This document shows, piece after piece, positions 8,555-61,791 of a DNA stretch of 64,000 nt. The stretch is from contig JAQTNC010000001.1 in the NCBI GenBank assembly GCA_028714475.1, positions 86,678 through 150,677 of the forward strand, given 5' to 3'. The position numbers and the translations under genes were made by a program. Below the pieces are notes generated by a model. That model was not told the DNA's origin and did not search any database. It was given only the letters and a program-made list of their open reading frames with translations. Positions within the stretch are counted from its first letter, which is position 1; every line of letters begins with the position of its first letter. This stretch comes from Patescibacteria group bacterium (GTDB taxonomy: Bacteria > Patescibacteriota > Patescibacteriia > SG8-24).

Positions 8555-9691
<1,137 letters not shown>

Positions 9692-10341: not shown

Positions 10342-10342
10342 C

Positions 10343-10381
10343 GAAGCCGTTCGCACACTGCGAACGGCTTCAGCTTTTGTT
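10343..10381 (+). terminator. rho-independent terminator
   Basis: gaagccgttcgc-acac-tgcgaacggcttc followed by agcttttgtt. Confidence 0.7.
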
Positions 10382-10479
10382 CATGGGGCACACACTAAAA
10401 CTCCCCGGCAGTTTTTGAAGAAATACGAAACATAAGAGGGGCGAGCGCCAGACGGCACTCACCCCTCATGTTCGAAGCG

Positions 10480-11904
10480 CTACAGACTAACCTCGATGGC
10501 CGGACGCTCGTGGGCCGGGAAGACGGTCATGCCGCCGCGCGACCGCAGTTCGGCGGTCACGCTGTCGAGAGCGGCTGGACTGCCGTGGGAGACCACGACG
10601 ACCTCGGCTCCCAAGCCATGAATCCCGTCGATCGTCCGCCGACGGCCGTTATGCCCGCCGAGGCGATAGTGTTCGACGTCGCAACGAAGCGACATCGTCC
10701 TGACTACCGTCTCGCGTTGGCTGTGCCGCTGGCTGAACGTGACGTCCGGATTCCGGCCCAACTCGTCTCGGAGTTTGGCCGCCTTGAGGATCTTGTCCCC
10801 GTCCGTCCCTTCAGCCACGTAGCCGGTGAAAGCCACGGTGGCTCCCGGAACCGGCAAGAAACGCTGACGCCACCAGGTGCCGCAGCCGCCTGGGCCACCC
10901 ATGCCGGGCGGCACGATGGCGATGAGGCTGCGGACGGACTCGGCCACGATTTGGCGCATCTGACGATCCTCGATGAGCTTGACGCCCTTCAGACTGACTT
11001 GCCGGTCCCGGTTGCACCAGGAATAGCTAGGGTCGGTCATCATCGGTGCCAAACGGGCAGCGGTGCCGTCGAGGAAAACCTGGCCGCTCTGGGTGATGCC
11101 GCGCCGTGCCAGTTCGCCGGCCACGGTGCCGCCGCGGTGCAGGGAGAAGACGTAGATCAACATCTTGCCTCCGCGCCGAAGCGTCTCGTCGCACTTGTCC
11201 GCCAGCCGGTCCATCTCGGCCCGCCAGTTCGGCGGCTCCGCTTCGGTCGCGCCGTAGGTGCAGTCGGTGCCGGGCACGACATCCGGACGCCATTCGTCCG
11301 GAGTGGGCACGGCGCCCAGGATGCTGGGCTGATCGTGATCACACACGTCACCCGTGTAGAGCACGTTGCACCCATCGATCCGGAACGTGAACGAACACGC
11401 TCCGCCAATGTGACCGGTTGGCTGAACCCAAGTGTCGAGACCGCCAATCTCGTGCTGGCCAGGCCGTTCGATGGCCTGCAGACGGCTCAAGACGTCGATG
11501 ACGTCTCTCCTTCCGTAGGGCTTGGCGAGACTGTCCGTGTCGCTGTCCCAGGTTTCGATCTCCCGGTCGAGCAGGTACTCGAGCACCTGAACCGTCGGGG
11601 TCGTGGCGTAGATGAGCGCGTCCGGCGCAAGGTGCGGCGCCAAACCCGGCAACCCGCCGACGTGATCGTTGTGCGCGTGCGTCAGGTAGACGGAGCCGAT
11701 CTTCCGACCGTCACCGAACGCCGAGAAATCCGGCGTCCTGAAGGTCTCTTCCGAACCGCGACGGTCGATGACCGAACCGCAGTCCACGACGATGCGCCTG
11801 GCAATGCTGCCACCGCGATTGACGACGTCCAGCAACCCACACGAAGGCTCGATCTCGTTGCGTCCCGTGTGCCGACCCAGCCGATGCAATCTTAATGTAG
11901 CCAC
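10480..11904 (-). CDS. MBL-fold metallo-hydrolase (possibly beta-CASP/RNase J-like)
   Basis: LTHAHNDHVGG (HxHxDH) motif, 474 aa; GC looks higher than neighbouring genes. Confidence 0.7.
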   Translation of the reverse strand: MATLRLHRLGRHTGRNEIEPSCGLLDVVNRGGSIARRIVVDCGSVIDRRGSEETFRTPDFSAFGDGRKIGSVYLTHAHNDHVGGLPGLAPHLAPDALIYATTPTVQVLEYLLDREIETWDSDTDSLAKPYGRRDVIDVLSRLQAIERPGQHEIGGLDTWVQPTGHIGGACSFTFRIDGCNVLYTGDVCDHDQPSILGAVPTPDEWRPDVVPGTDCTYGATEAEPPNWRAEMDRLADKCDETLRRGGKMLIYVFSLHRGGTVAGELARRGITQSGQVFLDGTAARLAPMMTDPSYSWCNRDRQVSLKGVKLIEDRQMRQIVAESVRSLIAIVPPGMGGPGGCGTWWRQRFLPVPGATVAFTGYVAEGTDGDKILKAAKLRDELGRNPDVTFSQRHSQRETVVRTMSLRCDVEHYRLGGHNGRRRTIDGIHGLGAEVVVVSHGSPAALDSVTAELRSRGGMTVFPAHERPAIEVSL

Positions 11905-12100
11905 TGTCTCACCGTTGCGGCCGCGCCCATGGCGTTGCCGTCCTTGTTGGTTGTCTGCTGTCTCTTTTAAAGAGTCTTTGCGTCCCCGCAGAACGCGGAA
12001 ACAACCAAGTATTTAAGCAAAAAATTCTGGGATTGTCAAGTTTAGCGACCAAAAACGCCCTGACACAAGGTCAGGACGTTTCTTCAGTCAACAATGGCCT

Positions 12101-12694
12101 TTATTCGGACAGCGCGAAGCGGACGAACCGCGTGATGCGCATGTTCTCGCCGGTCGTGGCGATCTTCTCCTTGAGCAGTTCCTCAATGGTCTTGTCCTCG
12201 TCCTTGATGAACGCCTGATTGAGGAGACAGACCTCGGAGTAGAACTTGGCGAGCTTGCCCTCGGCAATCTTCTCGATGACCTCACGCGGCTTGCTCGAGC
12301 CCTCGAACTCGGCCATGGCCAATTCCTTCTCCTTCTCGACGACCTCCGGCGGGATGGCGTCCGGGGACAGATAGAGAGGGTTGGTCGCGGCAATCTGCAT
12401 GGCCACGTCATGGACGAACTGCTGGAAGGCGTCGGTGCGGGCGACGAAATCCGTCTCGCACTGCACCTCAACAAGCACGCCCATCATGTTGTTCGGGTGG
12501 ATGTAGGCGTGAACCATGCCTTCCTTGGTCGTTCGCTCGCCGCGCGTGCCGGCCTTGGCGATGCCTTTCTTGCGGAGATGTTCGGCGGCTTTCCCGATGT
12601 CGCCGCCACACTCCTCAAGGGCCTTCTTGCAGTCCACGACGCCGGCACCGGTCTTGGCGCGGAGTTCGGAGACGGTTTGGGTGTCAATTGCCAT
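12101..12694 (-). CDS. tsf: elongation factor Ts (short form)
   Basis: LRAKTGAGVVDCKKAL N-terminus and EF-Ts core. Confidence 0.9.
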   Translation of the reverse strand: MAIDTQTVSELRAKTGAGVVDCKKALEECGGDIGKAAEHLRKKGIAKAGTRGERTTKEGMVHAYIHPNNMMGVLVEVQCETDFVARTDAFQQFVHDVAMQIAATNPLYLSPDAIPPEVVEKEKELAMAEFEGSSKPREVIEKIAEGKLAKFYSEVCLLNQAFIKDEDKTIEELLKEKIATTGENMRITRFVRFALSE

Positions 12695-12708
12695 GTTGGT
12701 TGGGATTA

Positions 12709-41607: not shown

Positions 41608-42198
41608 TCATTTCTTCATCTTCAGTGGCCTCTTCATCAGCGGCACGTCCCCCTTGAGCAGCCAAACCTTGGGCAGGCATTTCAGGATGGCCTCAACGGC
41701 CAACTTGATGTTGAGGTGGTCGGTGTCGATGGTGGCGTCATAAACGCTCATGTCGTCAAAATCGATGCCGTAGGTCTTGCGGTAACGGATGACGTTCTCT
41801 CGGTCGCGGCGGCACAAGTCGGCGTAAGCCTTCTTGAAGGGAATCTTCTCCCGCCTGGCGATGCGCTCCGCGCGGACTTTGGCGCTCGCCGTCAGCCAGA
41901 TTTTCTTGGCCGCAATGTCAAAACCGAGGCAGGTCCAGGCGGCGAGACGGCCTTGCATCACGGCACCAGACGATTTCTTGACCATCGCCGCGACGCGGGC
42001 GTCAAATTCCCGCTCCAGGGCCTTATGCTTCCCGGCGTATACCCCGAAGGTGATGACGTCCATCCCGTGCTCGAGGCCCATCTTGCGGAAAATCTGGCCG
42101 CTGTCAACGGACTTAAGCCCCAGCCGCTTCGCGACAAGGTTGGCAACCGTGGACTTTCCGGAGCCGGACGGGCCGGCAATGACGATGACGCGTTTCAT
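41608..42198 (-). CDS. cmk: cytidylate kinase
   Basis: IAGPSGSGKST P-loop and CMP kinase core. Confidence 0.85.
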   Translation of the reverse strand: MKRVIVIAGPSGSGKSTVANLVAKRLGLKSVDSGQIFRKMGLEHGMDVITFGVYAGKHKALEREFDARVAAMVKKSSGAVMQGRLAAWTCLGFDIAAKKIWLTASAKVRAERIARREKIPFKKAYADLCRRDRENVIRYRKTYGIDFDDMSVYDATIDTDHLNIKLAVEAILKCLPKVWLLKGDVPLMKRPLKMKK

Positions 42199-42244
42199 AG
42201 GAGATTAGTATTATCTCCGGATTAGGAGACTGGCGCAAGGGGTG

Positions 42245-43711
42245 TCAACCCGTGAGCCCCCGAAAGAAATCCACAATGACCACCATGGCCTCGGTGTCGC
42301 GGGCGCAGTAGGCCAACATGTCCTTACGCAATTGGGCTTTCTCGCGCTTCGGCAGGTCCGGCGAGCACAGCTTCGGCCACATGGCCATGGCCGTGCCGCC
42401 CTCGTGGATTTCCAAGTCATCATAGGCCTTTTCCGGCGCGATGACCGGCAGGACGGCCTTGAGCGAGGCGCTGTTGCCGAACCGCGCGTCGTAGTAGTCA
42501 CCGCTTCGGACGATGGTGATGGGGTCGTAAAGGCGCGCGTTCACCCGCTCGAAGAAGCGGGCGTGTTTCGGCACGCGCTTGGCGACCAACTCGTTACAGC
42601 CGCGCTCGAACGAGGCGTTCCAGGCGACGACACTGCCTTTCGGCCCGATCTCCTTGGACAGCTGGGCCGCGAGCGCCGTCGCCGGATCGCCCCACTCGTC
42701 CGCCAAGAATTCGTAATGCTTCAGCTTGCCGCCGGGCTTGGCCTGGACATGCAGGGAATACTGGAACGGCAGGTATTGATACGGCCGATAACCATCAAAC
42801 GGCGGCAGTGCCGAGGCGTACGCCTCGTAGTCGAGATAATGGACAGGATATTCCAAGGGCTTCAGTTGCTCGGCAATCCCCTCGCGGATGACGCGCGGCT
42901 GGCCGCTCCGCACGGCCTCCCAATGCCAGTGGTCGCGCTTGTCGACGAGCATCTCGTCCGGCACGTCGGCGAGGCGAACGATGTCGCGATCGAGCAAATC
43001 GTTGAGCTGATCGGCCTTGAGCCTCGTCTCGTAAATGGATCGGTTCGGCACGTCGCGCCAGCAATACGGGATAAGCGGGCAATCGTACGGGTCGGAGCAT
43101 TGCTTGAGGATGCGCACGGCCGGCTCTTCCTTCGAAGCCAGCGTCTGGCGAGCGGCCGCGACGCCACGCCGCACCTGGCTCTCCAAAGCCACGACCTCGA
43201 TGGTCACGTCCTCGGCCACGAGCAGCTTGCCCGGTTCGATCTCGCCCTGCCGAACGTATTCGTTATTGATGTGCGTGACGTAACAGCGGCCGATTTTGAA
43301 GCCAGCCGATTCAATGACGTGTTTCTGGAACGCCAAATCCAGGGTATGAATTTCCTTCACCTGCGTTGAGCTCTTGATTTCGCAGATGTCCCAACGTCCG
43401 CCGGCGGCGCGGACCAGCACGTCCGAGCGCGCGTACAGGTCATCAACCAGGAACGCCGGCTGATAGAGAACGCGAGCGGACGTCGCCATGAGCGCAGCCG
43501 TGCGTTTCGGCCCATCAAAGAATTTTTCCCCCGAGCAGTCAACGTGTTCGGGAAACAGCTTGAGCGCCTCGCTTTCGACCAACGCACCGTCGGCAAACCG
43601 CCGCTCGGCATCCGCATCCAGCTCGGTTGGCAGCAAATCCTTGCGGTTCTTTTCGAGCCACAGATACTTGGCGCACTGGTCAAAATGAAGGTAATTGGAC
43701 TTGGTTATCAT
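42245..43711 (-). CDS. DUF2779 family protein (N-terminal RecB/Cas4-like PD-(D/E)xK nuclease, C-terminal RNase H-like exonuclease)
   Basis: N-terminus ITKSNYLHFDQCAKYLWLEKN matches the DUF2779 SKSxYxxGxQCxKxLWL signature; Cys cluster DPYDCPLIPYCW; ~490 aa. Confidence 0.65.
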   Translation of the reverse strand: MITKSNYLHFDQCAKYLWLEKNRKDLLPTELDADAERRFADGALVESEALKLFPEHVDCSGEKFFDGPKRTAALMATSARVLYQPAFLVDDLYARSDVLVRAAGGRWDICEIKSSTQVKEIHTLDLAFQKHVIESAGFKIGRCYVTHINNEYVRQGEIEPGKLLVAEDVTIEVVALESQVRRGVAAARQTLASKEEPAVRILKQCSDPYDCPLIPYCWRDVPNRSIYETRLKADQLNDLLDRDIVRLADVPDEMLVDKRDHWHWEAVRSGQPRVIREGIAEQLKPLEYPVHYLDYEAYASALPPFDGYRPYQYLPFQYSLHVQAKPGGKLKHYEFLADEWGDPATALAAQLSKEIGPKGSVVAWNASFERGCNELVAKRVPKHARFFERVNARLYDPITIVRSGDYYDARFGNSASLKAVLPVIAPEKAYDDLEIHEGGTAMAMWPKLCSPDLPKREKAQLRKDMLAYCARDTEAMVVIVDFFRGLTG

Positions 43712-43799: not shown

Positions 43800-44585
43800 T
43801 CAGCTCGATATCGCGCGTCGCCACATCACGTCATAGACGCTTCTCATCATCGCCGTGATGTAATTATCCTCTATCTGGATGGCCATCGGCGCGTTCGGCT
43901 GCCAGAGGATGGTCTTGTTGGCGTACACCATGATGAGGGTGCTGAACGGCTCCATGTCGCGCAGAATCCGCGTCTCACGCAGTTCCTTGGCGTCCGCCGT
44001 TGCCAGCGTGTTTGTGTCGCCGCTCGGAAAAAGCAAGGCGCGCAAGTGCACGTTCAGGCGAACGCGGGCGTCGATCCAACGGCGTTCCTCCGCCCATGAG
44101 ACGAAGGCGATGAAATCCTGCGCCGAACCCATCACTAGAATCTCCTTGTTCGCCGCCTCCTCCACGCATTGGAAGAAGACCTTCAGGAACTGCTCCTTGC
44201 CCTGCAAGATGCGGACGGACGCGGGCAGCGAACCCTGCTGGTAGGCCGCGAGCAGGTCGGGCATGGCCCAAGCCAAGTGCTTGTCGGCTTCGGCCACGGC
44301 TTCCTGGTGCTTGCGCAAGAGTTCCTGCAATTTTGACGGCGGCTCCACGATAAACGTCCGCGCAAAACGCTTGCGGCTGGAGAAGTTCGCCAAGCCGCGC
44401 TTCTCCAGTTCAGAGATTATCTTATAGGCCTGCGGCCGCGAAATCCCGATTTGGGAAGCCAACACGGCAATCGAGGTCGGACCGAGTTTCAGCGACAGGC
44501 AATAAAGCAGGGTTTCCTGCCTCGATGCGCCGAGCTTGCGCAGGGAATCTGTCACGACTTCGTTCAATTCGTCTTGGCTAATCAT
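43800..44585 (-). CDS. TrmB-like winged-helix transcriptional regulator
   Basis: N-terminal HTH (LLYCLSLKLGPTSIAVLASQIGISRPQAYKIISELEKRGL) plus C-terminal domain; TATAAT ~8 nt before ATG suggests a leaderless mRNA. Confidence 0.65.
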   Translation of the reverse strand: MISQDELNEVVTDSLRKLGASRQETLLYCLSLKLGPTSIAVLASQIGISRPQAYKIISELEKRGLANFSSRKRFARTFIVEPPSKLQELLRKHQEAVAEADKHLAWAMPDLLAAYQQGSLPASVRILQGKEQFLKVFFQCVEEAANKEILVMGSAQDFIAFVSWAEERRWIDARVRLNVHLRALLFPSGDTNTLATADAKELRETRILRDMEPFSTLIMVYANKTILWQPNAPMAIQIEDNYITAMMRSVYDVMWRRAISS

Positions 44586-44627
44586 AGGTGAGATTATAAA
44601 AATAGTGTAGCAAATTTTTTACAATGT

Positions 44628-44688
44628 GTCAAAACTTGACTAGTTTAAGCCTAAAATGATTGACAATAATGTTATTTTATGCTATCAT
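44628..44688 (+). promoter_or_regulatory. AT-rich divergent control region: palindrome GTCAAAACTTGAC (candidate operator) plus promoter TTGACA-17-TATCAT
   Basis: seen in sequence; local AT content far above the genome background. Confidence 0.45.
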
Positions 44689-44717
44689 CTTCAGTTAATG
44701 ATTCACGTCTTCAATTT

Positions 44718-46172
44718 ATGGAACCCAAGAAATTCAAGAAACTCGTCATCCTCGATTCCGTCATCTTCTACCCCGAGCACCGCGAGGTTCTCAACCGCCT
44801 CGCCGAAGAGATCGTGGAGTACCCCTCAAGCCTGCCGGAACAGCTGGAGCGGCAGATGACGGAATCACCGGAACTGTTCAAGGAAAAACGATGCTATACG
44901 CAATTGGGTGCCGACAATACCCCGCTCCACCTCCTCATGAACCGAATCGAAGGCGCGGACGTCGTCGTCAGCTGCTGGACGAACATCCCGGATGAGATCC
45001 TGCGGCTGAACCCGCAACTGAAGCTGGTTGTCTTTTGGACCCACGAAAAGGAACACCGCATCAACATGGGTCTGGCGGAAGAACTGGGCATCACGGTGAC
45101 GAACATCCCGGATTACGGAACGGACGCCGTGGCCGAAGTCGTCTTCGCCGGCCTGCTGGAACTCCATTACCGGAACAGGCCGTTCGCCGCCGGGGAGCCT
45201 GACGGCGAAGCGATGGCTTACGCCGTCCTGCACCGGCTGTTTCGCGATTACCGGAAGCTGCCGGCGAACGAGAAGGACACACGCGCGGGCAAATTCACCC
45301 ACCATTTCCATAAGTTGGGGATGATTGACTTCAACGACCTCGACGAGAAGAGGCTGTCGAGTCTCATCCCAGAACGGCTCATCGAAGGCCGACGGGTTGG
45401 AATACTCGGCCTCCAGCAGGCCGAAGTGGTGATGCGGGTCTTGAGTGCCTTCGGCGTCGCCTGCGAGACCTGGACGCCAGGCGATTCCAGTTCAGCGGAA
45501 TTCTACAAGTTCATGAGCGGAAACGAGGTGGTATTCTGCGACAGCACCCGCCTCACGGAAACGGAGAGGCTCAAGGCTCAACACCTGAAAGGCCGTCTCC
45601 TTGTTGACGTCAATTCGCTGCGGGCAGTCCCCATACCCGTCAGCGGAAGTACGTTCGGCGTGGTCGGTCTCGGACGAATCGGCACCCGCGTCGCATTGAT
45701 TGCCAAGAAGCTCGGGTATCGCGTCATTTACCACTCTCGGACCAGGAAACCGGAAATCGAAACGCGTTTCGGGCTGGAGTACGCGTCCCTGCGCGAGCTC
45801 GCGGAAAACGCGGACATCGTTTCCGTGCATGTCCCTGCTCACAAGGCGGACGGCTTCATCGATGCGGAGCTGATCGGCCGGCTGAAAACGGGCGGCATCT
45901 TCATCAACACGGCGGACGGCAACGCGGTTGACCAACCGGCGCTGACGCAAAGGATGCGAACCGGATCAACGCTGGCGTTCCTAGACGTTTATCCGGGGCT
46001 TCCGCGCAAGGACATCCTCGGCCTTGAGATGGAAGACAAATCGGCCTGGAAAATCAAGAGCGATCTGCCTAACCACGTGTTTGGCTACCGATCAGGATGG
46101 AAAACGCGAGAATCCATCCGCGTGAAGACCTATAAATTGCTCGGCACATTAACGGAAAAACTGTATGCATGA
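44718..46172 (+). CDS. D-isomer-specific 2-hydroxyacid dehydrogenase family protein with ~150-aa insertion and a second degenerate NAD-binding-like segment
   Basis: GVVGLGRIGTRVA NAD motif; catalytic-domain N-terminus; 484 aa. Confidence 0.65.
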   Translation: MEPKKFKKLVILDSVIFYPEHREVLNRLAEEIVEYPSSLPEQLERQMTESPELFKEKRCYTQLGADNTPLHLLMNRIEGADVVVSCWTNIPDEILRLNPQLKLVVFWTHEKEHRINMGLAEELGITVTNIPDYGTDAVAEVVFAGLLELHYRNRPFAAGEPDGEAMAYAVLHRLFRDYRKLPANEKDTRAGKFTHHFHKLGMIDFNDLDEKRLSSLIPERLIEGRRVGILGLQQAEVVMRVLSAFGVACETWTPGDSSSAEFYKFMSGNEVVFCDSTRLTETERLKAQHLKGRLLVDVNSLRAVPIPVSGSTFGVVGLGRIGTRVALIAKKLGYRVIYHSRTRKPEIETRFGLEYASLRELAENADIVSVHVPAHKADGFIDAELIGRLKTGGIFINTADGNAVDQPALTQRMRTGSTLAFLDVYPGLPRKDILGLEMEDKSAWKIKSDLPNHVFGYRSGWKTRESIRVKTYKLLGTLTEKLYA

Positions 46173-46185
46173 GAAGGAGAAGTCA

Positions 46186-47682
46186 GTGAAGACGACGTTC
46201 AACCGGCTGAAAGGCTATTACGACCGGACGTGGGATCCGGCTGAGCACACGCTCCATGTCGGGCTGTTCAGCCGGACGACCCGCACCTTGGAAAAGGCCT
46301 ATGCGGCCGCGACGGATGACCTGATTCGGCGGGTCAATGCCCTGCGGCCGCTTGATGCCGAGTCGTCCGTATTGGACGTTGGCTGTGGAGCCGGCCGAAC
46401 GCTGATTTCGATCTGCGAACGTTTCGGCGCGAGAGGCGTCGGCATCGACATCAGCGAGGAGCAGGTGAAGGATGCCCGGCATCATCTTGCCCAGGTGAAC
46501 AAGGCGCGGGCAAAGGCCGACCACGCTCCTTTACGCGTGACCTTCGTATGCGGCACGGCGAGCGATTTAGGGTCGGCGGGGTTGGAAGGGCAACGTTTCT
46601 CACACGTCATCAGCCAGGACGCAATCTTGCTGGTACTGGACAAACAGGCGTTGTTCAATTCGTTATTCCAACTGATGGAACCGGGCGGTGTCCTCGGCAT
46701 CGCTGATTTCCTGGAGCAAGGCGGCGCAGGGTCTGTTAAAGAAAGGAAGCTCGTCTATGACCTCGTCCATTGGGAAAAAGGTCTGTCGTTCGGGATGTAT
46801 CGGCGCTTGCTGAAGCAGACCGGATTCGCCGTCGTGACCGCAAGACGCCGGGATGCGCACATGATCAGGACCTACGAGGCGTTGGCCAAGCAGATGGACG
46901 AGCGGCTGATGTCAAAAGACGGCACTTACCGGGAATTGCGAAATCGCTACCTGCAGATCGTGTCCTCGGTCAGGGCCGGAAAGATGGGCTGGGGGCTATT
47001 CCTGTCCCGGAAAAACCCGACGAAGACCGTCCTGATTGCCGGAACCAAACGAAAATCCATCGGAAGATACGTCGGCAAGGAACTGCAGCGCCGAGGTTGG
47101 GATGTCTGGCTTTACAGCCGTCATGCGAAATACGTGGAGCGGCCCGATTGGCACGAGAGGCCGTGCGACATAACATCTGATGCGCAAATCACCCGGCTCC
47201 TCAAGGAAATGCCGCCGGTTAACCTCTCCCTATTCATGGCGGACACGGGCGGCCACTTCCTACTGGAAGAAATGAATGAAGACAACACGAGAGCCTTGTT
47301 GGACGCCAAGCTGGTCGGTTCGGTTTTACTGACCAAGGCGCTCCTGAAAAAGCGTCCGCGCGGCTCCAAGACAAAACTTGTTTGGTGCGCTGGCAAGACA
47401 TCCGGGAAGAATAAACGGCTGATGCTTTACAGCGTCGTCAATTCCGGCCTCGCGTCATTCGTTGAAGCGCTGAACGAACATCGTGGGGATGAGGTCGAGG
47501 CCTATTACCTGATGACGCCGCTCATCTCGCCTTCAACGCTCGGCGACGCCTATATCGCGGAGGTTGGTTCGGCGGCGCGTCGGCAGGCCTACCATCCAAG
47601 TACGATTATGAAAAAAATCGACACCATCATCGGAGGTCGGGTGACGACCGGAATCGTTGGGTCAAAAGAAAAAATTATTTGA
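46186..47682 (+). CDS. fusion protein: class I SAM-dependent methyltransferase (N) plus SDR-like Rossmann domain (C)
   Basis: VLDVGCGAGR SAM motif; TVLIAGTKRKSIGRYVG Rossmann motif; GTG 46186 preceded by GAGAAGGAGAAG (alternative ATG 46165 overlaps the upstream stop). Confidence 0.65.
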   Translation: MKTTFNRLKGYYDRTWDPAEHTLHVGLFSRTTRTLEKAYAAATDDLIRRVNALRPLDAESSVLDVGCGAGRTLISICERFGARGVGIDISEEQVKDARHHLAQVNKARAKADHAPLRVTFVCGTASDLGSAGLEGQRFSHVISQDAILLVLDKQALFNSLFQLMEPGGVLGIADFLEQGGAGSVKERKLVYDLVHWEKGLSFGMYRRLLKQTGFAVVTARRRDAHMIRTYEALAKQMDERLMSKDGTYRELRNRYLQIVSSVRAGKMGWGLFLSRKNPTKTVLIAGTKRKSIGRYVGKELQRRGWDVWLYSRHAKYVERPDWHERPCDITSDAQITRLLKEMPPVNLSLFMADTGGHFLLEEMNEDNTRALLDAKLVGSVLLTKALLKKRPRGSKTKLVWCAGKTSGKNKRLMLYSVVNSGLASFVEALNEHRGDEVEAYYLMTPLISPSTLGDAYIAEVGSAARRQAYHPSTIMKKIDTIIGGRVTTGIVGSKEKII

Positions 47683-47875: not shown

Positions 47876-49558
47876 ATGCCCTTCTCCCCCGAGGAACGCG
47901 CCCTCCTGGAACCCTACGTCACCGACTGCGAACGCGATGTTTTCGCCGTGCGCAACCTGAACGGCATCGTCGGCGCGGTCTACGCGCGCTACAGCCGCGC
48001 GGCCACCGGCTTCCGCGAGACCCTGCTCAAGGAATTCGTCGAGGCCGGCGAGCTCGACATGAGCAAGGCGCAGGATCTCATCGAGCGCGTGCTCATCGCC
48101 TTCGGCGACGATTCGATCGGCGAACTCGAAGGGGCGCACGTCTCCTTCGAGAACATCTCCATCCTCGCGACCAAGGAAATCGAGGACCGGCGCATCGGCG
48201 GCTCACCCATCGAGAAATCCACGCGCTACGTCATTTATGACCAGCCGGGGCCGGACGGGTACTTCCGCTATTACCGCGACCCGGCCGTGGCCGCCTCGCC
48301 GCTCGGCGCTAAGTATGACGAGACGATGGGCTTCATCTTCCGCACCTACGCCGAACTCGTGGAGCCGATGCAGGACTATTACCGCGGGCTCAAGCCGATG
48401 GAGGAAGCAGAGTACGACATCAACGGCGACGGCGTCAAGGAACGCCTGACTGACTGTGAAAAGGAAGCCGACCAGAAGGCCTTCCGCCGCACCTACCAGA
48501 ACGACATCCGCACCAAGGCCTGCGACGCCTTGCGCTATCTCCTGCCCGTCGCCACGCTGACCAACGTCGGTGTCTTCGGCAACGGCCGCTTCTTCCAGAA
48601 CGTGCTCACCCACTGCTATACGAGCGCCCTGCCGGAAGCCCAGCGCCTCGCCGAGGCGACGCACGAGGAGCTGAACAAAATCATCCCGCGCTACGTGAAG
48701 CGCGCGGCCAAGCAGGAATACAATGCCGCCAACCATGAACGCATGCGCCGTTTCACCGCCGCCCTGCTCGCGGGAACCAAACCGGAGACATCCGATGAGG
48801 TTGAACTAATCGACCGCGGCGAGGCCGCCATCGCGGAACGGCTGTCCCAAGGACCGGTGGACGTTGCCGCCGTGCGCGCCGCGCTCCAAGGCGAGGACGA
48901 CGCACTGCTCATCGCGGCCATGCTCTTCCCGTATGCCGAACATCCGCTGGGACAGCTGCACCGTTTCGTGAGCGGCCTCGCGCCGGAACAGCGCCAGGTC
49001 ATCGTGGACAACTTCATCGGCGAACGCCGCAACCGCCGTGACCGCCCGGGGCGGCCGATGGAAACCGGCTACCCGTGGACGTTCGACATGCTCACCGACT
49101 TCGGCACTTACAAGGATTTGATGCGGCACCGCGTCACCACCCAGCTCCGCCAGAAATTCACGCCCAAGCTCGGCTTCGCCGTGCCGCCTGATCTTGAGGC
49201 AGCCGGTTTCGCCCACCGCGCGCTCGAATGCCGCGACCGCGCCGCCGAGCTCTACGACGCGCTCCTGCCGGAATTCCCCGAACAGGCCAGTTACGCCACG
49301 CTCCACGGTTCGCTCGTCCGCTGGGTCATCGGCTTCAACGACCGCGAGGCCGTCCACCTCATCGAGTTGCGCACCACGCCCCAGGGCCACCCGTCCTACC
49401 GGAAAGTCGCCCAACTGCTCCACCGAGCCATGGCCGCCCGGTCGCCGTGGCGCGCCGCCATCCTCAAGTTCGTCGACCACAACGATTACTTCTGGAGCCG
49501 CGCCGATTCCGAAGCCCGCCAGCGGGCCCAGGAACGCGCGCTTGACGAGAAAAAATGA
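47876..49558 (+). CDS. thyX: FAD-dependent thymidylate synthase ThyX, long tandem-domain form
   Basis: RHR...S ThyX signature region (LMRHRVTTQLRQ), ThyX-like segments in both halves, 560 aa. Confidence 0.7.
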   Translation: MPFSPEERALLEPYVTDCERDVFAVRNLNGIVGAVYARYSRAATGFRETLLKEFVEAGELDMSKAQDLIERVLIAFGDDSIGELEGAHVSFENISILATKEIEDRRIGGSPIEKSTRYVIYDQPGPDGYFRYYRDPAVAASPLGAKYDETMGFIFRTYAELVEPMQDYYRGLKPMEEAEYDINGDGVKERLTDCEKEADQKAFRRTYQNDIRTKACDALRYLLPVATLTNVGVFGNGRFFQNVLTHCYTSALPEAQRLAEATHEELNKIIPRYVKRAAKQEYNAANHERMRRFTAALLAGTKPETSDEVELIDRGEAAIAERLSQGPVDVAAVRAALQGEDDALLIAAMLFPYAEHPLGQLHRFVSGLAPEQRQVIVDNFIGERRNRRDRPGRPMETGYPWTFDMLTDFGTYKDLMRHRVTTQLRQKFTPKLGFAVPPDLEAAGFAHRALECRDRAAELYDALLPEFPEQASYATLHGSLVRWVIGFNDREAVHLIELRTTPQGHPSYRKVAQLLHRAMAARSPWRAAILKFVDHNDYFWSRADSEARQRAQERALDEKK

Positions 49559-49559
49559 T

Positions 49560-50237
49560 ATGCCGACCAAGGGAAAATTTTTCGTCATCGACGGCACCGA
49601 CGGATCGGGCAAGAAGACGCAGACCGAATTGATGGTGGAAAAACTGCGCGCCTCCGGCCGCCGCGTCGAGACCGTCAGCTTTCCGCGATACGGCAAGCAG
49701 AGTTGTTCCGCGGTCAGCGACTACTTGAGCGGCCGTTTCGGCGCGGCGCACGAAGTCGATCCCAAAGTCGCCTCGATGTTCTACGCCATGGACCGCTACG
49801 ACGCCAGTCCGCAGATCCGCGCCTGGCTCGATGAAGGCGCCATCGTCATTGCCGACCGTTACGTCAGCTCCAACATGGGCCACCAGTGCGGCAAGATCGG
49901 CGACCCCGAAGGACGCGAGGCCTGCATCCGCTGGAACAAGGAGTTGGAATATGGCCTGTTAAACCTCCCCCGCCCCGACCTCACCGTCATCCTGCACGTG
50001 CCGGCGGAAATCTACCTGCGTCTGCTCAAGGAACGCGACGGCGAGCATCAGGACATCCACCAGGCCGACCCCGAACACCTGAAGAATGCCGAAGAAACCT
50101 ACCTGGAAATCGCCAAGAGCGATGCCCAGTACCGCCTCGTCGAGTGCGCGCCGGAAGGCGTTCTCCTTAGCCGCGAGGCCATCCACGAGCTTGTCTGGCA
50201 GGAGGTCGAAAAAACGTTGACACAGGCTGACGGGTAA
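49560..50237 (+). CDS. tmk: thymidylate kinase (copy 1)
   Basis: FFVIDGTDGSGKKTQ P-loop, DRY motif; start 1 nt after the thyX stop. Confidence 0.9.
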   Translation: MPTKGKFFVIDGTDGSGKKTQTELMVEKLRASGRRVETVSFPRYGKQSCSAVSDYLSGRFGAAHEVDPKVASMFYAMDRYDASPQIRAWLDEGAIVIADRYVSSNMGHQCGKIGDPEGREACIRWNKELEYGLLNLPRPDLTVILHVPAEIYLRLLKERDGEHQDIHQADPEHLKNAEETYLEIAKSDAQYRLVECAPEGVLLSREAIHELVWQEVEKTLTQADG

Positions 50238-50270
50238 GCCGAAGCCAGGCCGGAAAGCACAATAAAATAT

Positions 50271-50333
50271 GCCCTGAGCCTGTCGAAGGGCGTATTTTTT
50301 GCATTCCCTTCGACTTCGCTCAGGGAATATAAG
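50271..50333. repeat. family 1 palindromic repeat, copy G (arms in swapped order)
   Basis: gccctgagcctgtcgaaggg...cccttcgacttcgctcaggg. Confidence 0.7.
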
Positions 50334-50422
50334 ACATCAATACTTATCCACAGTTTTTCCTTTGTCTTTACCTCGCCCGGCCAGTAAAATTTTGGCACAA
50401 ACAAACAGCCGGGAGACAAAAG

Positions 50423-51109
50423 ATGTCCGACAAAAGAAATGGCTTGTTCGTTGTCATCGATGGTCCGGACGGAACGGGCAAACACACCCAGGTCGTCAAA
50501 CTCGAAGTGCGCATGCATGCCGAAAATCTAGAGCCCATTGAACAGGCGAGCTTCCCGCGCTACGGCGAACGCAGCTGCGAGCTCGTAAAGATGTACCTGG
50601 GCAACGAATTCGGCCCAGCTGCGAGTCTGGATCCGCGCATCGCTTCCGTTTTTTTTGCGGTCGATCGTTTTGCCGCCAGGCAAAAAATGGTCGAAGTCCT
50701 GTCGGCCGGAGGAATCATACTCTCTGACCGGTTTGTCTCGGCCAACGCCGGCCACCAGTGTTGCAAGATCGACGACCCTGACGCGCGCCGCGCCTTCCTG
50801 CGGTGGCTCGACGAATTCGAATTCGGGCTCATGCAATTGCCACGCCCGGACATCACGCTCATTCTCACCCTGCCGCTCGATATCATCCAGCGCCGGCTCC
50901 AGGCGCGCGACGGCGATAAGCAGGACGGCCACCAGGCCGACCCGAACCACCTCGCCAGGGCACTCATTGCCTACGAGGAGATCGCCCAGCAGTCTGGCTA
51001 TCGCCGCATCGATTGCGCGCCGGGCGGCCGCGAGCTGTCCGAGCAGGAGGTCCATGAACTCATCTGGCGCGAGGTCGAGCCTTTGTACCGCGCCCATCGC
51101 CCAACCTGA
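50423..51109 (+). CDS. tmk: thymidylate kinase (copy 2, paralogue)
   Basis: FVVIDGPDGTGKHTQ P-loop, DRF motif; co-linear with copy 1. Confidence 0.88.
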   Translation: MSDKRNGLFVVIDGPDGTGKHTQVVKLEVRMHAENLEPIEQASFPRYGERSCELVKMYLGNEFGPAASLDPRIASVFFAVDRFAARQKMVEVLSAGGIILSDRFVSANAGHQCCKIDDPDARRAFLRWLDEFEFGLMQLPRPDITLILTLPLDIIQRRLQARDGDKQDGHQADPNHLARALIAYEEIAQQSGYRRIDCAPGGRELSEQEVHELIWREVEPLYRAHRPT

Positions 51110-53830: not shown

Positions 53831-53998
53831 TATTGCTTCGGCAAAATCTTGAACATGCCGGTGCCGCAAGTGGTGCAGGTGCCCTTCATCGCCGGGCGGG
53901 TGCCACCTCCCTTGGCAGGCATCTCAATCTGATGGGCGTCCTTCATCTCGCGCTTGTCCTTGCATTTGACGCAATATCCGATAACCTGGTCGGCCATA
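53831..53998 (-). CDS. 55-aa zinc-ribbon mini-protein (DUF5679-like), not in the ORF track
   Basis: own translation of the minus strand: MADQVIGYCVKCKDKREMKDAHQIEMPAKGGGTRPAMKGTCTTCGTGMFKILPKQ; CxxC...CxxC; terminator-like hairpin downstream. Confidence 0.5.
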
Positions 53999-54127
53999 TA
54001 TTAAAAGTTAGTCTATGCTAACTCTGTTAAGACTTACTAAGGCTATTGTAACAATTTTGCCCAATTATCGCCACTTTTAGGTCAAAGGCAGCCAAAAATA
54101 CTATATTTTAGCAAAAAATTCTGATAT

Positions 54128-57926: not shown

Positions 57927-58018
57927 AACAGCGGAAGGTTAACCGTAAAAAGCCGATATGTCAACGCGAAAATCGTCGGTTAAGTTACGCAAAATCCTTC
58001 ACCTATTAGACAAAATCA

Positions 58019-58047
58019 TTGACAAATAAGCAAAAATATGCTAAGGT
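58019..58047 (+). promoter_or_regulatory. putative promoter (TTGACA-17-TAAGGT)
   Basis: seen in sequence in an AT-rich spacer upstream of the 58084 gene. Confidence 0.35.
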
Positions 58048-58083
58048 TTAATTATCCTAAACCATCAAATATTTTGAAACTAT

Positions 58084-59289
58084 ATGAGACACGAAGGCGC
58101 ACCAAGACTGCCGGATGAGGTCGTCGACCAGCCGGAAGACAAAGCCGTCGAAGACCGTCGTTCTGGCGAGTACGAAAAATTCGATACGGCTGGTATTTTT
58201 GATGCCCTTCCTAGCGAGGATGAGGCAAAAAAATTCGAGCAAACAGCGCCCGAAGCCGATCCGGAAATCACAATCGGCCGCGACGAACTGACAGAAGAAG
58301 AAATGGATGCCGTTCGGCAAGAAGCAAATGCCTCGCTGAAACCCGTGGAGTTGAAGGCGCCGGTGGGCAAAAGGGAGCCCGATGACGAAAATTTTCCCAT
58401 CCCCAAAGGTGCGGTAGGCAGGGTTGAGGGTTCAATGAAGCTGCCCGAAAATTTACCTATATCGATGTCAAAGAAGAGCGAGGCCCAGATGAGGAAAGAA
58501 ACGGCTGAGACCAGGGAGTATTTCCCCATCCCCAAAGGCGCCGAGGGCAAGGTTGAACTGAAGAGTCCGGTGGCTTCGCCGGAATCGCAGGCGGCTCATA
58601 GGGCGCGTCGGGCGGCAGAACTGGAAAGAGCACAGGCTCAAGTCGAAGCGGCCTTTTACGCGCAAGGCGACAAGATGACGGCGGGGACGGAACGCTCAAA
58701 GCGAGCGATGGCCGAAGCGAGTCAGCGCCTCGCCGAAGCCCGAAAGAACGCCGCTCCGGAAATCACCATCAAAGAAGCAACGGCCGCAGAAACGGGTGAA
58801 GCAAACCGAGCGGTGGACGAGGCGAATCAAGCGGCTGCCAACGAACAGCTTAGTGCCGAATCCAGCGCGGAAGAACAGGCTTTCTTCGAAACGGGCTCCA
58901 GAGGATATACGGAACGCGGCGAGGGCGGCATGACAGCCGGCCAAGTCGGCGAGTACGTTGACAAGGGGGCATCGCTGAAAAAAACCGGGGGTGTCGGGGA
59001 AAATGCCGCCTCGCGCGTCGCGTTCCTGACCAAACGGATTGAGGAGCTCAAAAAGGTGGAGGCCGAAACGGAGCCCGCTGCTCAAGCCCAAAAGATGAGA
59101 GGGTTTTTTGGCAGGCTCCTAAACCGCAAGGATGCCGGGGCCGCGCTCTCGCACAAGAAAGCGGTCGAGGCACTGGGCAACGCCCAAGCCGAACTCAATG
59201 AAATCAGGAACCGCCAGGCAAATCCAGAGGGGACGGCATATGCCGGCGCCATCCGCAGTGTAACCGCCGCGGCGAAGCGCGGTCGCTAA
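58084..59289 (+). CDS. hypothetical acidic Ala/Glu-rich low-complexity protein with internal FPIPKGA(V/E)G(R/K)VE repeat
   Basis: ORF followed by a strong terminator; no SD. Confidence 0.5.
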   Translation: MRHEGAPRLPDEVVDQPEDKAVEDRRSGEYEKFDTAGIFDALPSEDEAKKFEQTAPEADPEITIGRDELTEEEMDAVRQEANASLKPVELKAPVGKREPDDENFPIPKGAVGRVEGSMKLPENLPISMSKKSEAQMRKETAETREYFPIPKGAEGKVELKSPVASPESQAAHRARRAAELERAQAQVEAAFYAQGDKMTAGTERSKRAMAEASQRLAEARKNAAPEITIKEATAAETGEANRAVDEANQAAANEQLSAESSAEEQAFFETGSRGYTERGEGGMTAGQVGEYVDKGASLKKTGGVGENAASRVAFLTKRIEELKKVEAETEPAAQAQKMRGFFGRLLNRKDAGAALSHKKAVEALGNAQAELNEIRNRQANPEGTAYAGAIRSVTAAAKRGR

Positions 59290-59472: not shown

Positions 59473-61290
59473 CTACCCTTTCCTCTTCGCGATCTCCTCC
59501 GTCACCTTCGTGACGAACGCCTTCACGGTCATGCGCGTTTCCTTCTGCTGGCCGCGCTTGCGGACGTTCACGGTCTTGAGGGTCTTTTCCTTATCGCCGA
59601 CCACCAGCATATACGGCACCTTGGCCTTCTCAGACTTGCGAATCTTGTACCCGACCGTCTCGCGCGAATCGTCGGAAACGGCGCGGATGCCGGCGGCCAC
59701 GAGCTGGTCGGCGAGCTTCTTCGCGACTTTCCAGTGGTCCTTGCCGACCGGGATGACTTGCACCTGCACGGGAGCGAGCCAGGTCGGAAAAGCGCCGGCG
59801 TAATGCTCGATGAGCACGGCCATGAAGCGCTCGATGGAACCGAGGATGGCGCGGTGAATCATCACCGGCCGCTTCTTCTGGCCGTCAGTATCGGTGTATT
59901 CGAGCTGGAATCTCTCCGGCAGGTTGAAATCGAGCTGGACCGTGGCGAGCTGCCATTCGCGGCCGATGGCGTCCTTAGCCATGAAGTCGATCTTCGGCCC
60001 GTAGAACGCCGCTTCACCCACGCCGACGGTGTAATCCATCTTGAACTCCTTGAGGATTTTGGCGAGCGTCCCTTCGGCTTTGGCCCAGACTTCGGGCGAG
60101 CCGAGCACTTTCTCCGGATGCTCTGGGTCGTGCGTGGAAAGCCGCGCGCGAAGGCTCATCTTGAAGACCGCGTAGAACTTGCTGATGATCTTGTAGACGT
60201 TCTTCACTTCCTGTTCCACCTGATCAATCCGGCAGAAAAGATGGCCGTCGTCCTGGGTGAGCGAACGCACGCGCGAAAGGCCCTGCAGCTGGCCGGTGTT
60301 CTCGTCGCGGTAGCAGGTCGTGACTTCGCTGTAGCGGATGGGCAGGTCGCGGTAACTGCGCGGCTGGGAGGCGAAGATTTGCGTGTGATGTGGGCAGTTC
60401 ATCGGCTTGATGACGAACGCGTCATCGGTCTTCTTCGAAGTGACGTGGAAGAGGTCGTCCTGAAACTTGTCCCAGTGACCGGAGGTCTTGTAGAGGTCGG
60501 TCTTGGCGAGATGCGGAATCCAGACGCGCTGGTAGCCGAACGGCTGCTGGAGGCCCCAAACGAAGGTCTCGAGCTCGCGGCGGACGAGCGTGCCGCGCGG
60601 GGTGAACATCGGCAGGCCCGGACCGACGAGGTTCGAGAAGGTGTAGAGGTCGAGTTCTTGACCGAGCTTGCGGTGGTCGCGCTTCTCGGCTTCCTCCATC
60701 AGCTTGAGGTGCGCGTCGAGTTCTTCCTGCGTCGCGAAGCACAACCCGTACACGCGCTGGAGCATCGGGTTGTTCTCGTCACCGCGCCAGTAAGCGCCGG
60801 CGACTGACTTCAGCTTGAACGCGCCGATTTCCTTGGCGTTCGCCACGTGAGGGCCGCGACACAAATCCGTGAACTTGCCGGTGCGGTAGATGCTGACAAC
60901 GTTGGGTTTGGCGACGTCGATGTCCCCCGCCTCCTCCTCGCGCACGGCAGTCGTACCCTTCTCCTGGATGGCGCGCAGCAACTGGACCTTGTATGGCTGG
61001 TTCAACCCGTCGAAAAGCTCAATGGCCTTTTCGATGGGCATCTCCTCGCGCACGAACTCAACCTTGCGCGCCTGCAGGTCGCGCATCCGCTTCTCGAGCT
61101 TCTGGAGATCGAGCGGGGTGAGCGGTTTCGGCAGATCAAGGTCGTAATAGAAGCCGTGCTCCACGACCGGCCCGACGCCAAATTTGGCTTCGGGGTAAAG
61201 CTCCTGCACGGCGGCCGCGAGCAAATGCGCGCAGGAATGGCGCTGGATCTCGATGGCCGGTAAATCGACGGCTTTTTCCTTGTTAGACAT
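59473..61290 (-). CDS. thrS: threonine--tRNA ligase lacking the N-terminal TGS domain
   Basis: HSCAHLL, class II aaRS core and anticodon-binding domain; start set at Met48 (MSNKEK) ~20 aa before HSCAH. Confidence 0.88.
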   Translation of the reverse strand: MSNKEKAVDLPAIEIQRHSCAHLLAAAVQELYPEAKFGVGPVVEHGFYYDLDLPKPLTPLDLQKLEKRMRDLQARKVEFVREEMPIEKAIELFDGLNQPYKVQLLRAIQEKGTTAVREEEAGDIDVAKPNVVSIYRTGKFTDLCRGPHVANAKEIGAFKLKSVAGAYWRGDENNPMLQRVYGLCFATQEELDAHLKLMEEAEKRDHRKLGQELDLYTFSNLVGPGLPMFTPRGTLVRRELETFVWGLQQPFGYQRVWIPHLAKTDLYKTSGHWDKFQDDLFHVTSKKTDDAFVIKPMNCPHHTQIFASQPRSYRDLPIRYSEVTTCYRDENTGQLQGLSRVRSLTQDDGHLFCRIDQVEQEVKNVYKIISKFYAVFKMSLRARLSTHDPEHPEKVLGSPEVWAKAEGTLAKILKEFKMDYTVGVGEAAFYGPKIDFMAKDAIGREWQLATVQLDFNLPERFQLEYTDTDGQKKRPVMIHRAILGSIERFMAVLIEHYAGAFPTWLAPVQVQVIPVGKDHWKVAKKLADQLVAAGIRAVSDDSRETVGYKIRKSEKAKVPYMLVVGDKEKTLKTVNVRKRGQQKETRMTVKAFVTKVTEEIAKRKG

Positions 61291-61425
61291 ATCGGGAAAG
61301 ATGTATTTATAGCCGAAATTATGATACGCCCCGAGGATAGATTTGGCAACCAAAAGAAGTGTCCTTGACGTAGGCCGTATTTTCCGTAAGATTAGCCCAA
61401 ACGCAAGAAGACGGAGGAATCGAAG

Positions 61426-61791
61426 ATGCAATCATTGCCCGTTATCGACGCGCTGGCTCTGGGCGTAGTTCTGGAGGCCGCCAAACGCAGGGGCCAAACC
61501 GCAGAAGTCACTAAAAGAGACGAATGGGCGGGCGGCATCGCAGGCCGAACCCAATATCTTCTCCAGGTAGAACTGCCGGAAGCGATTCGCCAAGGTTATC
61601 AGCTTCACCAGGAGGAGGTCACGTTCTCCGTTGAAGGGCCCATGTCCAGCAACGCCGAAAAGGTCATGGAAGCCGCCGTGGCGGAGCTGCGCCGAGCCGG
61701 CAAGCAGGTTACTGACCCAAGAAAGGGGTTCGGCTGGATCAGCAAGACCGTATCGGTTCCGATTGTTTGCGCCACCCTCACCCTCTGGTGA
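61426..61791 (+). CDS. hypothetical protein
   Basis: GGAGGAA SD 8 nt before ATG 61426. Confidence 0.5.
   Translation: MQSLPVIDALALGVVLEAAKRRGQTAEVTKRDEWAGGIAGRTQYLLQVELPEAIRQGYQLHQEEVTFSVEGPMSSNAEKVMEAAVAELRRAGKQVTDPRKGFGWISKTVSVPIVCATLTLW

Follow-up and report, generated by a model that had tools for sequence, protein, structure and literature searches.

A divergently regulated CPR operon pairs a remodelled 2-hydroxyacid dehydrogenase-fold protein with a methyltransferase/SDR-like fusion

Bacteria of the Candidate Phyla Radiation (CPR; Patescibacteria) are ultra-small and have tiny genomes and few regulators. Within the TrmB family of transcription factors, a C-terminal sugar-binding effector domain is found in TrmB and TrmBL1 but not in TrmBL2. 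Almost all members of the 2-hydroxyacid dehydrogenase (2-HADH) family carry a catalytic triad in which Arg is the most conserved active-site residue, and none of the 22 subfamilies in a published survey is described with the residue pattern reported here (PMC6303947). We describe a three-gene module in a 64,000-nucleotide stretch of contig JAQTNC010000001.1 from a Patescibacteria group bacterium (GCA_028714475.1, positions 86,678 to 150,677; hereafter the window), in which a TrmB-like regulator is divergent to genes for a 2-HADH-fold protein and for a class I S-adenosylmethionine (SAM) methyltransferase fused to a short-chain dehydrogenase/reductase (SDR)-like domain. We propose that this module is probably a native, vertically maintained accessory operon of CPR, controlled by a divergent repressor, whose enzymes would convert a small metabolite upon induction with the help of NAD(P) and SAM.

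The regulator is a 261-aa winged helix-turn-helix (HTH) protein of TrmBL2-like architecture (43800-44585, minus strand), assigned from the Pfam TrmB HTH and from orthologues. A 132-bp AT-rich divergent promoter spacer (44586-44717) separates it from the gene for the 2-HADH-fold NAD(P)-binding protein, a 484-aa member of a divergent clade (44718-46172, plus strand; Pfam, AlphaFold2 and Foldseek). The methyltransferase/SDR-like fusion, 505 aa long (46165-47682, plus strand; Pfam, NCBIfam and a fold model), follows, its start overlapping the stop codon of the 2-HADH-like gene by 8 nt. All three open reading frames (ORFs) named in the original prediction, an earlier reading of the same DNA, are borne out, and its picture of a regulated small-molecule modification module is right in outline, with a divergent TrmB-type regulator, an AT-rich sigma70-type promoter region and the 8-nt gene overlap; nothing in the evidence points specifically to lipids, which it had also suggested. 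The mechanical ORF of the 2-HADH-like gene opens at 44679, within the AT-rich spacer; homologue alignment and an independent gene call concur on ATG 44718 as the start, confirming the predicted 484 aa. The fusion, predicted at 499 aa, is indeed a fusion and is 505 aa long, since its homologues begin at the same Met. A 154-kb contig in a metagenome-assembled genome (MAG) labelled 'Patescibacteria group bacterium' encodes proteins that match both enzymes with 100% identity, and run SRR22315509 has yielded the same locus.

The arrangement of these genes was then compared with that in other genomes. We scanned one genome per species for full-length relatives of the 2-HADH-like protein and found them in Uhr-, Vogel-, Azam-, Falkow-, Magasanik-, Andersen-, Peregrini- and Peribacteria and in MAGs labelled Saccharibacteria, as well as in DPANN archaea and, more distantly, in other phyla. 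Full-length homologues from Uhr-, Falkow-, Giovannoni-, Vogel-, Azam-, Magasanik- and Andersenbacteria share 44-60% identity with the window protein, and those from Peregrinibacteria are more distant (about 37-40%). The clade is small: searching with the N-terminal 310 residues returned only 28 clusters (50% identity) at E<=1e-10 among 1.84 billion representatives. When the loci were probed by tblastn with the window proteins, at least 14 CPR loci proved to carry a TrmB-like gene of 41-51% identity, divergent to the enzyme genes and upstream of them, and in most of these loci the fusion gene lies immediately 3' of the 2-HADH-like gene; three Magasanikbacteria/Parcubacteria loci have the permuted order regulator, fusion, 2-HADH-like. 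The trio of regulator, 2-HADH-like protein and fusion is conserved as a unit across CPR lineages. Because a dedicated and presumably autoregulated repressor is conserved with the enzyme pair across many CPR classes, the module is probably needed under particular conditions only, for a function absent from present-day metabolic reconstructions. A link with the neighbouring ThyX, Tmk, Cmk and DUF2779 genes was rejected: these flank the module in the window only, neighbours differ among genomes, and in none of the related loci are they syntenic with it. A role in anti-phage defence was likewise rejected, the PADLOC matches being to generic HTH and methyltransferase domains only.

The regulator matches the Pfam TrmB HTH (PF01978) over residues 15-72 with 29.9 bits against a cutoff of 25.6. 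Its best PDB sequence match is TrmBL2 of Thermococcales (5bpd/5box), to which it is similar in its N-terminal winged HTH, in length (261 versus 264 aa) and in colinearity, residues 24-214 aligning with residues 20-210. Sequence similarity to TrmBL2 is very weak (E 0.003), however, and the regulator described here is bacterial, local and divergent, and is associated with sigma70-type promoters. It has no Pfam match to a TrmB C-terminal domain, the separate sugar-binding domain of TrmB proper. The C-terminal two-thirds of the protein is strongly conserved among CPR orthologues, which suggests an effector or oligomerisation domain. Several loci (L010, L011, L018, L019, L024 and L030, in our numbering of related loci) carry multiple TrmB-like paralogues within 10 kb, and this suggests that the regulator family has expanded in CPR and DPANN genomes.

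As predicted, the spacer is far more AT-rich than the window (26% versus 60% GC), and it is the lowest-GC 130-nt stretch in the 64 kb. Equivalent spacers in relatives have 17-35% GC, compared with 33-51% for their loci. AT-rich spacers are a general habit of this genome, because other intergenic regions also drop to 29-30% GC; the next-lowest stretches, at 57956-58085 and 53996-54125, are likely further promoter regions.

The spacer contains two predicted divergent promoters. For the enzyme operon, the predicted near-consensus TTGACA-17-TATCAT lies at 44660-44688 (plus strand), matches the consensus at 11/12 positions, carries a TG before the -10 and would give a 5' untranslated region (UTR) of ~23 nt. 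When 16 related spacers were aligned on the plus-strand -35, TTGAC(A/T)-17-TAxxxT was found in 12, with a conserved (G/T)GTATA(A/T)TT word inside the promoter spacer. The candidate regulator promoter on the minus strand (44604-44632) consists of TTGACA (44632-44627) and TACACT (44609-44604) separated by 17 nt, again with a TG before the -10, and scores 10/12; in relatives a minus-strand -35 is followed 17-18 nt on by a -10 that lies within a conserved inverted repeat. This conserved promoter would give the regulator a 5' UTR of ~12 nt. The original prediction had instead read the regulator mRNA as leaderless from a TATAAT close to its start codon. That hexamer is present (44598-44593, minus strand, 7 nt before the ATG); leaderless transcription finds no support in it and is not favoured, because the TATAAT has no -35 partner while the TTGACA-17-TACACT arrangement is conserved in relatives. 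The transcript may be short-leadered or, possibly, leaderless. The missing Shine-Dalgarno sequence is uninformative on this point, since a Shine-Dalgarno-like 4-mer precedes no more than 13 of the window's 48 credible genes.

Where the regulator would bind is best approached through the relatives. The palindrome GTCAAAACTTGAC (44628-44640), proposed earlier as the operator, does exist as an exact 13-bp palindrome with a single exact copy in the window, and it sits centrally between the two genes. Inverted GTCAA and TTGAC repeats recur in nine related spacers, with GTCAA upstream of the plus-strand -35. Nevertheless, the gap between the halves varies among these from 2 to ~20 nt, five loci have no exact GTCAA in the left half (L010, L011, L013, L016 and L021), and either half has a -10-like hexamer at a distance of 17-18 nt, just as a -35 box would. 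The left half in the window is itself the minus-strand TTGACA -35 of the regulator promoter, and the right half corresponds in relatives to the enzyme-promoter -35. Because half-site spacing varies and the hexamers sit at promoter distance from -10-like hexamers, GTCAAAACTTGAC is better explained as two back-to-back -35 hexamers than as a palindrome bound by a dimer, and we regard its use as an operator by a TrmB-like dimer as unlikely.

A different and better conserved inverted repeat, of fixed spacing, overlaps the -10 elements. GTGTATA-N7-TATACAC, which to our knowledge is not a published motif, matches 12 of 14 related CPR (Parcubacteria-type) spacers at no fewer than 12/14 positions, whereas shuffled spacers yield 0.19 matches of >=10/14 per spacer. 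In all 12 matching spacers the repeat contains or overlaps the regulator -10, and in nine loci a weaker second copy (10-11/14) begins 9 nt past the plus-strand -35 and reaches the operon -10. An unbiased word count agrees, with related 7-mers in 10-13 of 16 spacers versus a maximum of 10 in shuffles. We consider this repeat to be a conserved operator candidate in the relatives. Across the 64 kb scanned, there are no further sites for GTCAANNCTTGAC, for the local palindrome or for GTGTATA-N7-TATACAC (<=3 mismatches), and no regulon is visible.

Profile hidden Markov model (HMM) and structure searches of both enzymes return a 2-HADH fold for the first and a class I methyltransferase plus an SDR-like Rossmann fold for the second. 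For the 484-aa protein, the Pfam models 2-Hacid_dh_C (E 9e-33) and 2-Hacid_dh both score over cutoff, the AlphaFold2 model is well defined (pLDDT 85.6, pTM 0.85), and the top 50 Foldseek matches are all 2-HADHs, with E down to 6e-17, which gives the two-domain fold with a flavodoxin-like substrate domain and a Rossmann NAD(P) domain. Its closest known counterparts are glyoxylate/hydroxypyruvate reductases of the D-2-hydroxyacid dehydrogenase family (for example Pyrococcus horikoshii 2dbq, or the GhrB/GRHPR type; Foldseek E 3e-15, TM on target 0.70), with which the protein shares the two-domain fold, an alignable NAD(P) domain, a GxGxxG motif and an SRTRK-type end of beta-B. The dinucleotide-binding motif GLGRIG (residues 317-322; 45666-45683, plus strand) is invariant. 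The beta-B end reads YHSRTRK, has no acidic residue and aligns with YYSRTRK of the NADP-complexed 2dbq, which suggests that NADP(H) can bind and may be the preferred cofactor.

The active site, in contrast, departs from that of 2dbq-type glyoxylate/hydroxypyruvate reductases at every catalytic position, and the earlier description of this dehydrogenase as atypical is well founded. The catalytic Arg is replaced by Asp (INIARG of 2dbq aligns with INTADG); this position is Asp throughout the CPR/DPANN clade and Val or Ala in other subfamilies. The catalytic Glu (or Asn/Gln) is lost, LDVFEEEP aligning with LDVYPGLP (Gly/Leu). The segment of the catalytic His (TPH) reads (A/T)YR(A/S/L)GW, YRAGW in the window protein, with an invariant Arg; it was matched by family-alignment position, the HMMER alignment ending earlier. 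Moreover, the beta4-alpha4 loop AVGYDNID of 2dbq, with its Val/Ala-Gly main-chain amides that place the carboxylate of the substrate, is replaced by WTHEKEHR (residues 107-114; 45036-45059, plus strand), an invariant remodelled substrate loop of the form WTHExEHR. H113-R114 is invariant in all subfamilies, and W107-T108, D132-Y133-G134-T135-D136, K199, R458 and W461 are likewise invariant across three divergent subfamilies. In total ~55 invariant positions are concentrated, by alignment, in the loops lining the 2-HADH substrate cleft. Because the invariant residues sit in these loops, we favour an enzyme whose active site has been rebuilt over a dead one. The possibility that HExxH is a family-wide zincin-like metal site was rejected, as the first His is Asn in the short subfamily described below.

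A further departure from 2dbq-type reductases is a family-specific interdomain insertion of ~160 aa (residues 154-310; 45177-45647, plus strand), which canonical 2-HADHs do not have and around which the HMM matches end at residue 149 and restart at 307. It includes helices with the highly conserved NEKxTRxGKFxHHFHK (45267-45314, plus strand) and a small alpha/beta subdomain (residues 220-300; 45375-45617, plus strand), modelled as beta-alpha-beta-alpha-beta at 226-297, which short family members do not have. When residues 218-300 were compared with the first half of the NAD domain by hhalign, they aligned colinearly (probability 86-90%, E 2e-6; 0.3% for the catalytic domain as control), which supports the internal duplication that had been suspected: the insertion includes a degenerate duplicate of half a Rossmann domain. 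The two NAD-binding-like glycine motifs on which that suspicion was based fare differently. GLGRIG holds, whereas the first, GILGLQ (residues ~227-232), is not conserved in the family, which makes dinucleotide binding by the duplicate unlikely. A further lead was rejected: the NEKxTRxGKF and SCW motifs resemble those of S-adenosylhomocysteine hydrolase, an enzyme that would fit a methyltransferase partner. A profile of residues 1-215 searched against the PDB (E<=10) found only 2-HADHs, and no such hydrolase, in the best 60 of 76 matches, and Pfam AdoHcyase_NAD appears only as generic NAD-domain matches in 6 of 25 members.

The methyltransferase domain of the fusion (residues 1-285; 46165-47019, plus strand) is recognised by five Pfam models over cutoff (Methyltransf_31, _25, _23 and _11, and the CMAS N-terminus), and its motif I, LDVGCGxG, and the acidic residue at the end of beta2, D95, are invariant. 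Residues 18-283 align with positions 24-277 of the 278 in the NCBIfam SDMT profile NF041675 (E 7e-15); at 55.7 bits against a cutoff of 550, the likeness to SDMT is at the level of fold and cap only. In the PDB the nearest sequences (E about 1e-15) belong to phosphoethanolamine N-methyltransferases, to MitM and to a putative SDMT; by fold, Foldseek adds 2o57, AtmM, RebM and CMAS-type structures, with TM on target of 0.8-0.87 (fusion model pLDDT 86.4). The domain shares with these LDVGCGxG and an N-terminal YYDxxWD...HxG(L)F cap, and it differs from them in its scores far under equivalog cutoffs and in its fusion to an SDR-like domain. These matches fix the enzyme class, not the substrate.

The remainder of the fusion (residues 286-505; 47020-47682, plus strand) is predicted to form an atypical SDR-like Rossmann domain. 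Pfam adh_short falls under its cutoff (E 6e-5; 23.1 versus 26.6 bits), and the assignment comes from the fold model and an alignment to FabG-type SDRs. With classical SDRs the domain shares a predicted Rossmann fold of ~220 aa, a Gly-rich N-terminal turn, a conserved Tyr and a PxxxT-like segment. Its cofactor motif AGTKxKSIG, however, is one residue longer than TGxxxGxG, and against FabG-type 2nm0 YAASK becomes YSVVN, ISS becomes CAG and NLTG becomes KLVG: the Tyr is kept and the rest of the tetrad is not (YxxxK to YxxxN, Ser to Ala/Gly, Asn to Lys). Y422 and N426 are invariant in the family. In some CPR lineages the methyltransferase is a separate protein of ~285 aa; a separate SDR-like ORF is found only in L018. 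In MAGs of Pseudomonadota and Lentisphaera, a short 2-HADH-like gene has an SDR gene and one for an orthologous methyltransferase (34% identity, E 5e-50) as its neighbours. Because separate and adjacent forms co-occur elsewhere, the methyltransferase, the SDR and the 2-HADH-like protein appear to be linked functionally well beyond this genome. Orthology of the fused SDR-like domain with the classical SDRs beside distant homologues could not be demonstrated by hhalign (probability 2.9%).

Distant relatives of the 2-HADH-like protein provide the available clues to a substrate. One subfamily, of 31-35% identity and with Val in place of the canonical Arg, is represented in Acidobacteria, Verrucomicrobia, Microgenomates, Actinophytocola (Actinobacteria) and Alphaproteobacteria (L026, L027, L028, L029, L031, L032, L035 and L038; ~4000-12700 each). 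Its neighbours always include a diverged threonyl-tRNA synthetase (ThrRS) paralogue (230-295 bits versus a cutoff of 484) and a classical SDR, and also TauD-like dioxygenase and radical SAM (rSAM)/SPASM or B12-rSAM genes; the whole looks like an uncharacterised biosynthetic cluster. A short subfamily (340-415 aa, without the alpha/beta insert) is found in Desulfobacterota, Pseudomonadota and Lentisphaera MAGs (L037 and L039-L044; ~1000-11000), where its operons also encode an SDR, a LIV-type ABC transporter (Peripla_BP_6, permeases and ATPases), a sigma54 activator, unannotated proteins of ~600 aa and, sometimes, the orthologous methyltransferase. In Woesearchaeota the gene is accompanied by one for a longer TrmB-like regulator, to which a single locus adds a radical SAM gene. 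These neighbourhoods give a weak and indirect hint of an amino- or hydroxy-acid-like substrate for the window subfamily. A direct ThrRS link for that subfamily was rejected as coincidence: the window's own ThrRS gene is 12 kb off (59473-61431), and adjacency is seen only in L008 among typical CPR loci.

Taken together, these data lead us to propose the following mechanism. The operon would be maintained vertically in Patescibacteria and occurs without the methyltransferase in DPANN archaea. The regulator and the enzyme operon would be transcribed from the back-to-back sigma70-type promoters of the 132-bp spacer. By analogy with TrmB-family and bacterial repressors, a regulator dimer is expected to bind inverted repeats over the -10 elements of both promoters, which would produce autorepression as well as repression of the operon, and a small-molecule inducer bound at the conserved C-terminal domain would release it. 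The 484-aa NAD(P)-binding enzyme, from a small clade derived from D-2-hydroxyacid dehydrogenases, would act through a new invariant cleft set comprising H113-R114, D132-Y133-G134-T135, K199 and R458. Its partner would be a small-molecule SAM methyltransferase of the SDMT, phosphoethanolamine N-methyltransferase, RebM or MitM type that carries the atypical SDR-like domain. We propose that the two proteins together perform an inducible redox-plus-methylation conversion of one small polar metabolite, our best guess for which is an amino- or hydroxy-acid-like or sugar-like compound.

Several observations weigh against this proposal. The window spacer has no match of 10/14 or better to GTGTATA-N7-TATACAC at the N7 spacing. 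The palindrome TGTAGCAAATTTTTTACA (TGTA-N10-TACA; 44606-44623), which overlaps the regulator -10, is the positional equivalent of the relatives' operator O1 and is unique in the window, and it reaches 10/14 only if the spacer is taken as 6 nt; it is the candidate operator of this genome by position only. A shifted specificity and a divergent operator here would fit the recognition helix of the window regulator, which has Q52/A53 at the place of an Asn-aliphatic pair present in 15 of 15 CPR orthologues; this observation speaks for the proposal. Catalytic residues are missing in both NAD(P) domains, so that one or both could be non-catalytic. The 2-HADH-like gene and the regulator occur without the fusion in L007, L012, L034 and L036 and in the DPANN loci L019 and L020, and because of such genomes the two enzymes need not form an obligatory pathway. 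Finally, the substrate clues, LIV-type ABC transporters and ThrRS paralogues, come from distant subfamilies only.

A more specific version of the rebuilt active site can be formulated. The beta4-alpha4 loop of the substrate domain would supply both the acid/base His and a substrate-binding Arg (H113-R114), with another Arg standing where the His used to be. The protein would then represent an unrecognised 2-HADH-fold clade with a non-canonical substrate or stereochemistry and, with the SDMT/phosphoethanolamine N-methyltransferase-like methyltransferase and the atypical SDR, would form an inducible methylated-metabolite pathway suited to the host-dependent CPR lifestyle. A beta-hydroxy or amino acid, for example a threonine derivative, is a candidate substrate because sister subfamilies are linked to ThrRS paralogues and LIV-type amino-acid transporters. 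We put this scheme forward only tentatively and would not expect it to hold in full.

It is also conceivable that the 2-HADH-like protein, the SDR-like domain or both are non-catalytic NAD(P)(H)-binding redox sensors or scaffolds, in the manner of CtBP or NmrA, that modulate the methyltransferase or the regulator. The loss of canonical catalytic residues in both proteins is compatible with such a role, and the plant protein AN, a 2-HADH relative without catalytic residues, is non-enzymatic (PMC6303947). The ~55 invariant cleft-loop positions, which include the His-Arg pair and DYGT in three distant subfamilies, are nevertheless typical of an active site and not of a cofactor sensor, and the neighbourhoods in other phyla are enzymatic or transport-related. 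We consider a purely non-catalytic role quite improbable.

Even less likely, in our view, is that the 484-aa protein is an ordinary fermentative D-lactate, glyoxylate or hydroxypyruvate dehydrogenase that happens to lie beside an unrelated methyltransferase. Source annotations do call it 'lactate dehydrogenase-like 2-hydroxyacid dehydrogenase' or 'glyoxylate reductase', its NAD domain aligns to glyoxylate reductases over ~125 residues with E values as low as 7e-39, and D-lactate dehydrogenase is commonly reported in CPR metabolic surveys (PMC8672522). However, none of the three triad residues is retained, nor is the Val-Gly substrate loop; the NCBIfam score is 121 bits against an equivalog cutoff of 455 and far below every equivalog cutoff; the ~160-aa insertion sets the protein apart; and its gene is tightly and conservedly coupled to the fusion, the two genes overlapping. 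Because the catalytic residues of the family are missing, the protein is not to be read as a lactate or glyoxylate dehydrogenase.

The original prediction also held that GC content and codon usage of the block are lower than those of its surroundings and that the module was possibly acquired horizontally; neither claim survives. Relative to the 48 window genes, GC3 z-scores are +0.46, -0.38 and -1.03 and total-GC z-scores -0.8, -1.0 and -1.4 for the regulator, the 2-HADH-like gene and the fusion, differences that are not significant, and in codon usage each of the three genes is closer than average to the other window genes. These ordinary values mean that there is no compositional sign of recent acquisition, and orthologues of the trio stand in conserved synteny in relatives. 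A recently acquired genomic island, a foreign regulated module inserted among housekeeping genes, is the least probable of the explanations considered: the slightly low GC of the two enzyme genes, the varying flanking genes and the patchy distribution in 28 clusters would fit it, and the native GC3 and codon usage, the shared arrangement in CPR orthologues and the lack of any integrase, repeats or tRNA flanking the module within the window speak against it. Variable genomic context and patchy distribution may allow an old exchange among CPR lineages.

These findings have consequences for annotation. The labels 'lactate dehydrogenase-like' and 'glyoxylate reductase' are misleading for this clade, and 'D-lactate fermentation' calls in CPR would be wrong if fed by such genes. 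Not only does the family show, in compact form, how nature has remodelled an active site and duplicated part of a domain in a well-studied fold, the promoter and candidate operator layout also provides a testable model of transcription control for an uncultured phylum. What is new here, modest but real, is a CPR-conserved operon with a TrmB-type regulator, and a small uncharacterised 2-HADH-derived clade, with its triad replaced and its Rossmann domain partly duplicated, whose partner joins a methyltransferase to an SDR-like domain that is just as atypical.

Individual loci show further variations. In L007 (7891-7962 and 9477-10000), from a MAG with a Gammaproteobacteria label whose locus is CPR-like, a tRNA gene separates the module promoter from the 2-HADH-like gene, directly downstream of which a tRNA gene cluster contains a group I intron (Rfam RF00028, 71.5 bits). 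Three relatives have unrelated small ORFs (~66-122 aa) inserted after the conserved promoter and ahead of the first enzyme gene (L018 7607-7846; L022 ~7060-7430; L030 ~5510-5710); a GC-rich hairpin-like sequence follows each of them, and these regions are without an Rfam match. A structured RNA or riboswitch leader was rejected, there being no Rfam match in the window or in the spacers of L007, L018, L022 and L030; elsewhere Rfam finds tRNAs and one group I intron only. In the Uhrbacteria locus L010 (UBA11707), a ~1.2-kb insertion (10570-11775) carrying a 272-aa ORF on the opposite strand interrupts the SDR-like part of the fusion gene.

In the window itself the module is flanked on both sides (41608-43711 and 47876-51109) by nucleotide-metabolism genes. 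Among them are genes for a cytidylate kinase and a DUF2779/Cas4-like nuclease, a tandem pair of thymidylate kinase paralogues that are 49% identical to each other, and an unusually long ThyX of 560 aa that contains two Thy1 stretches.

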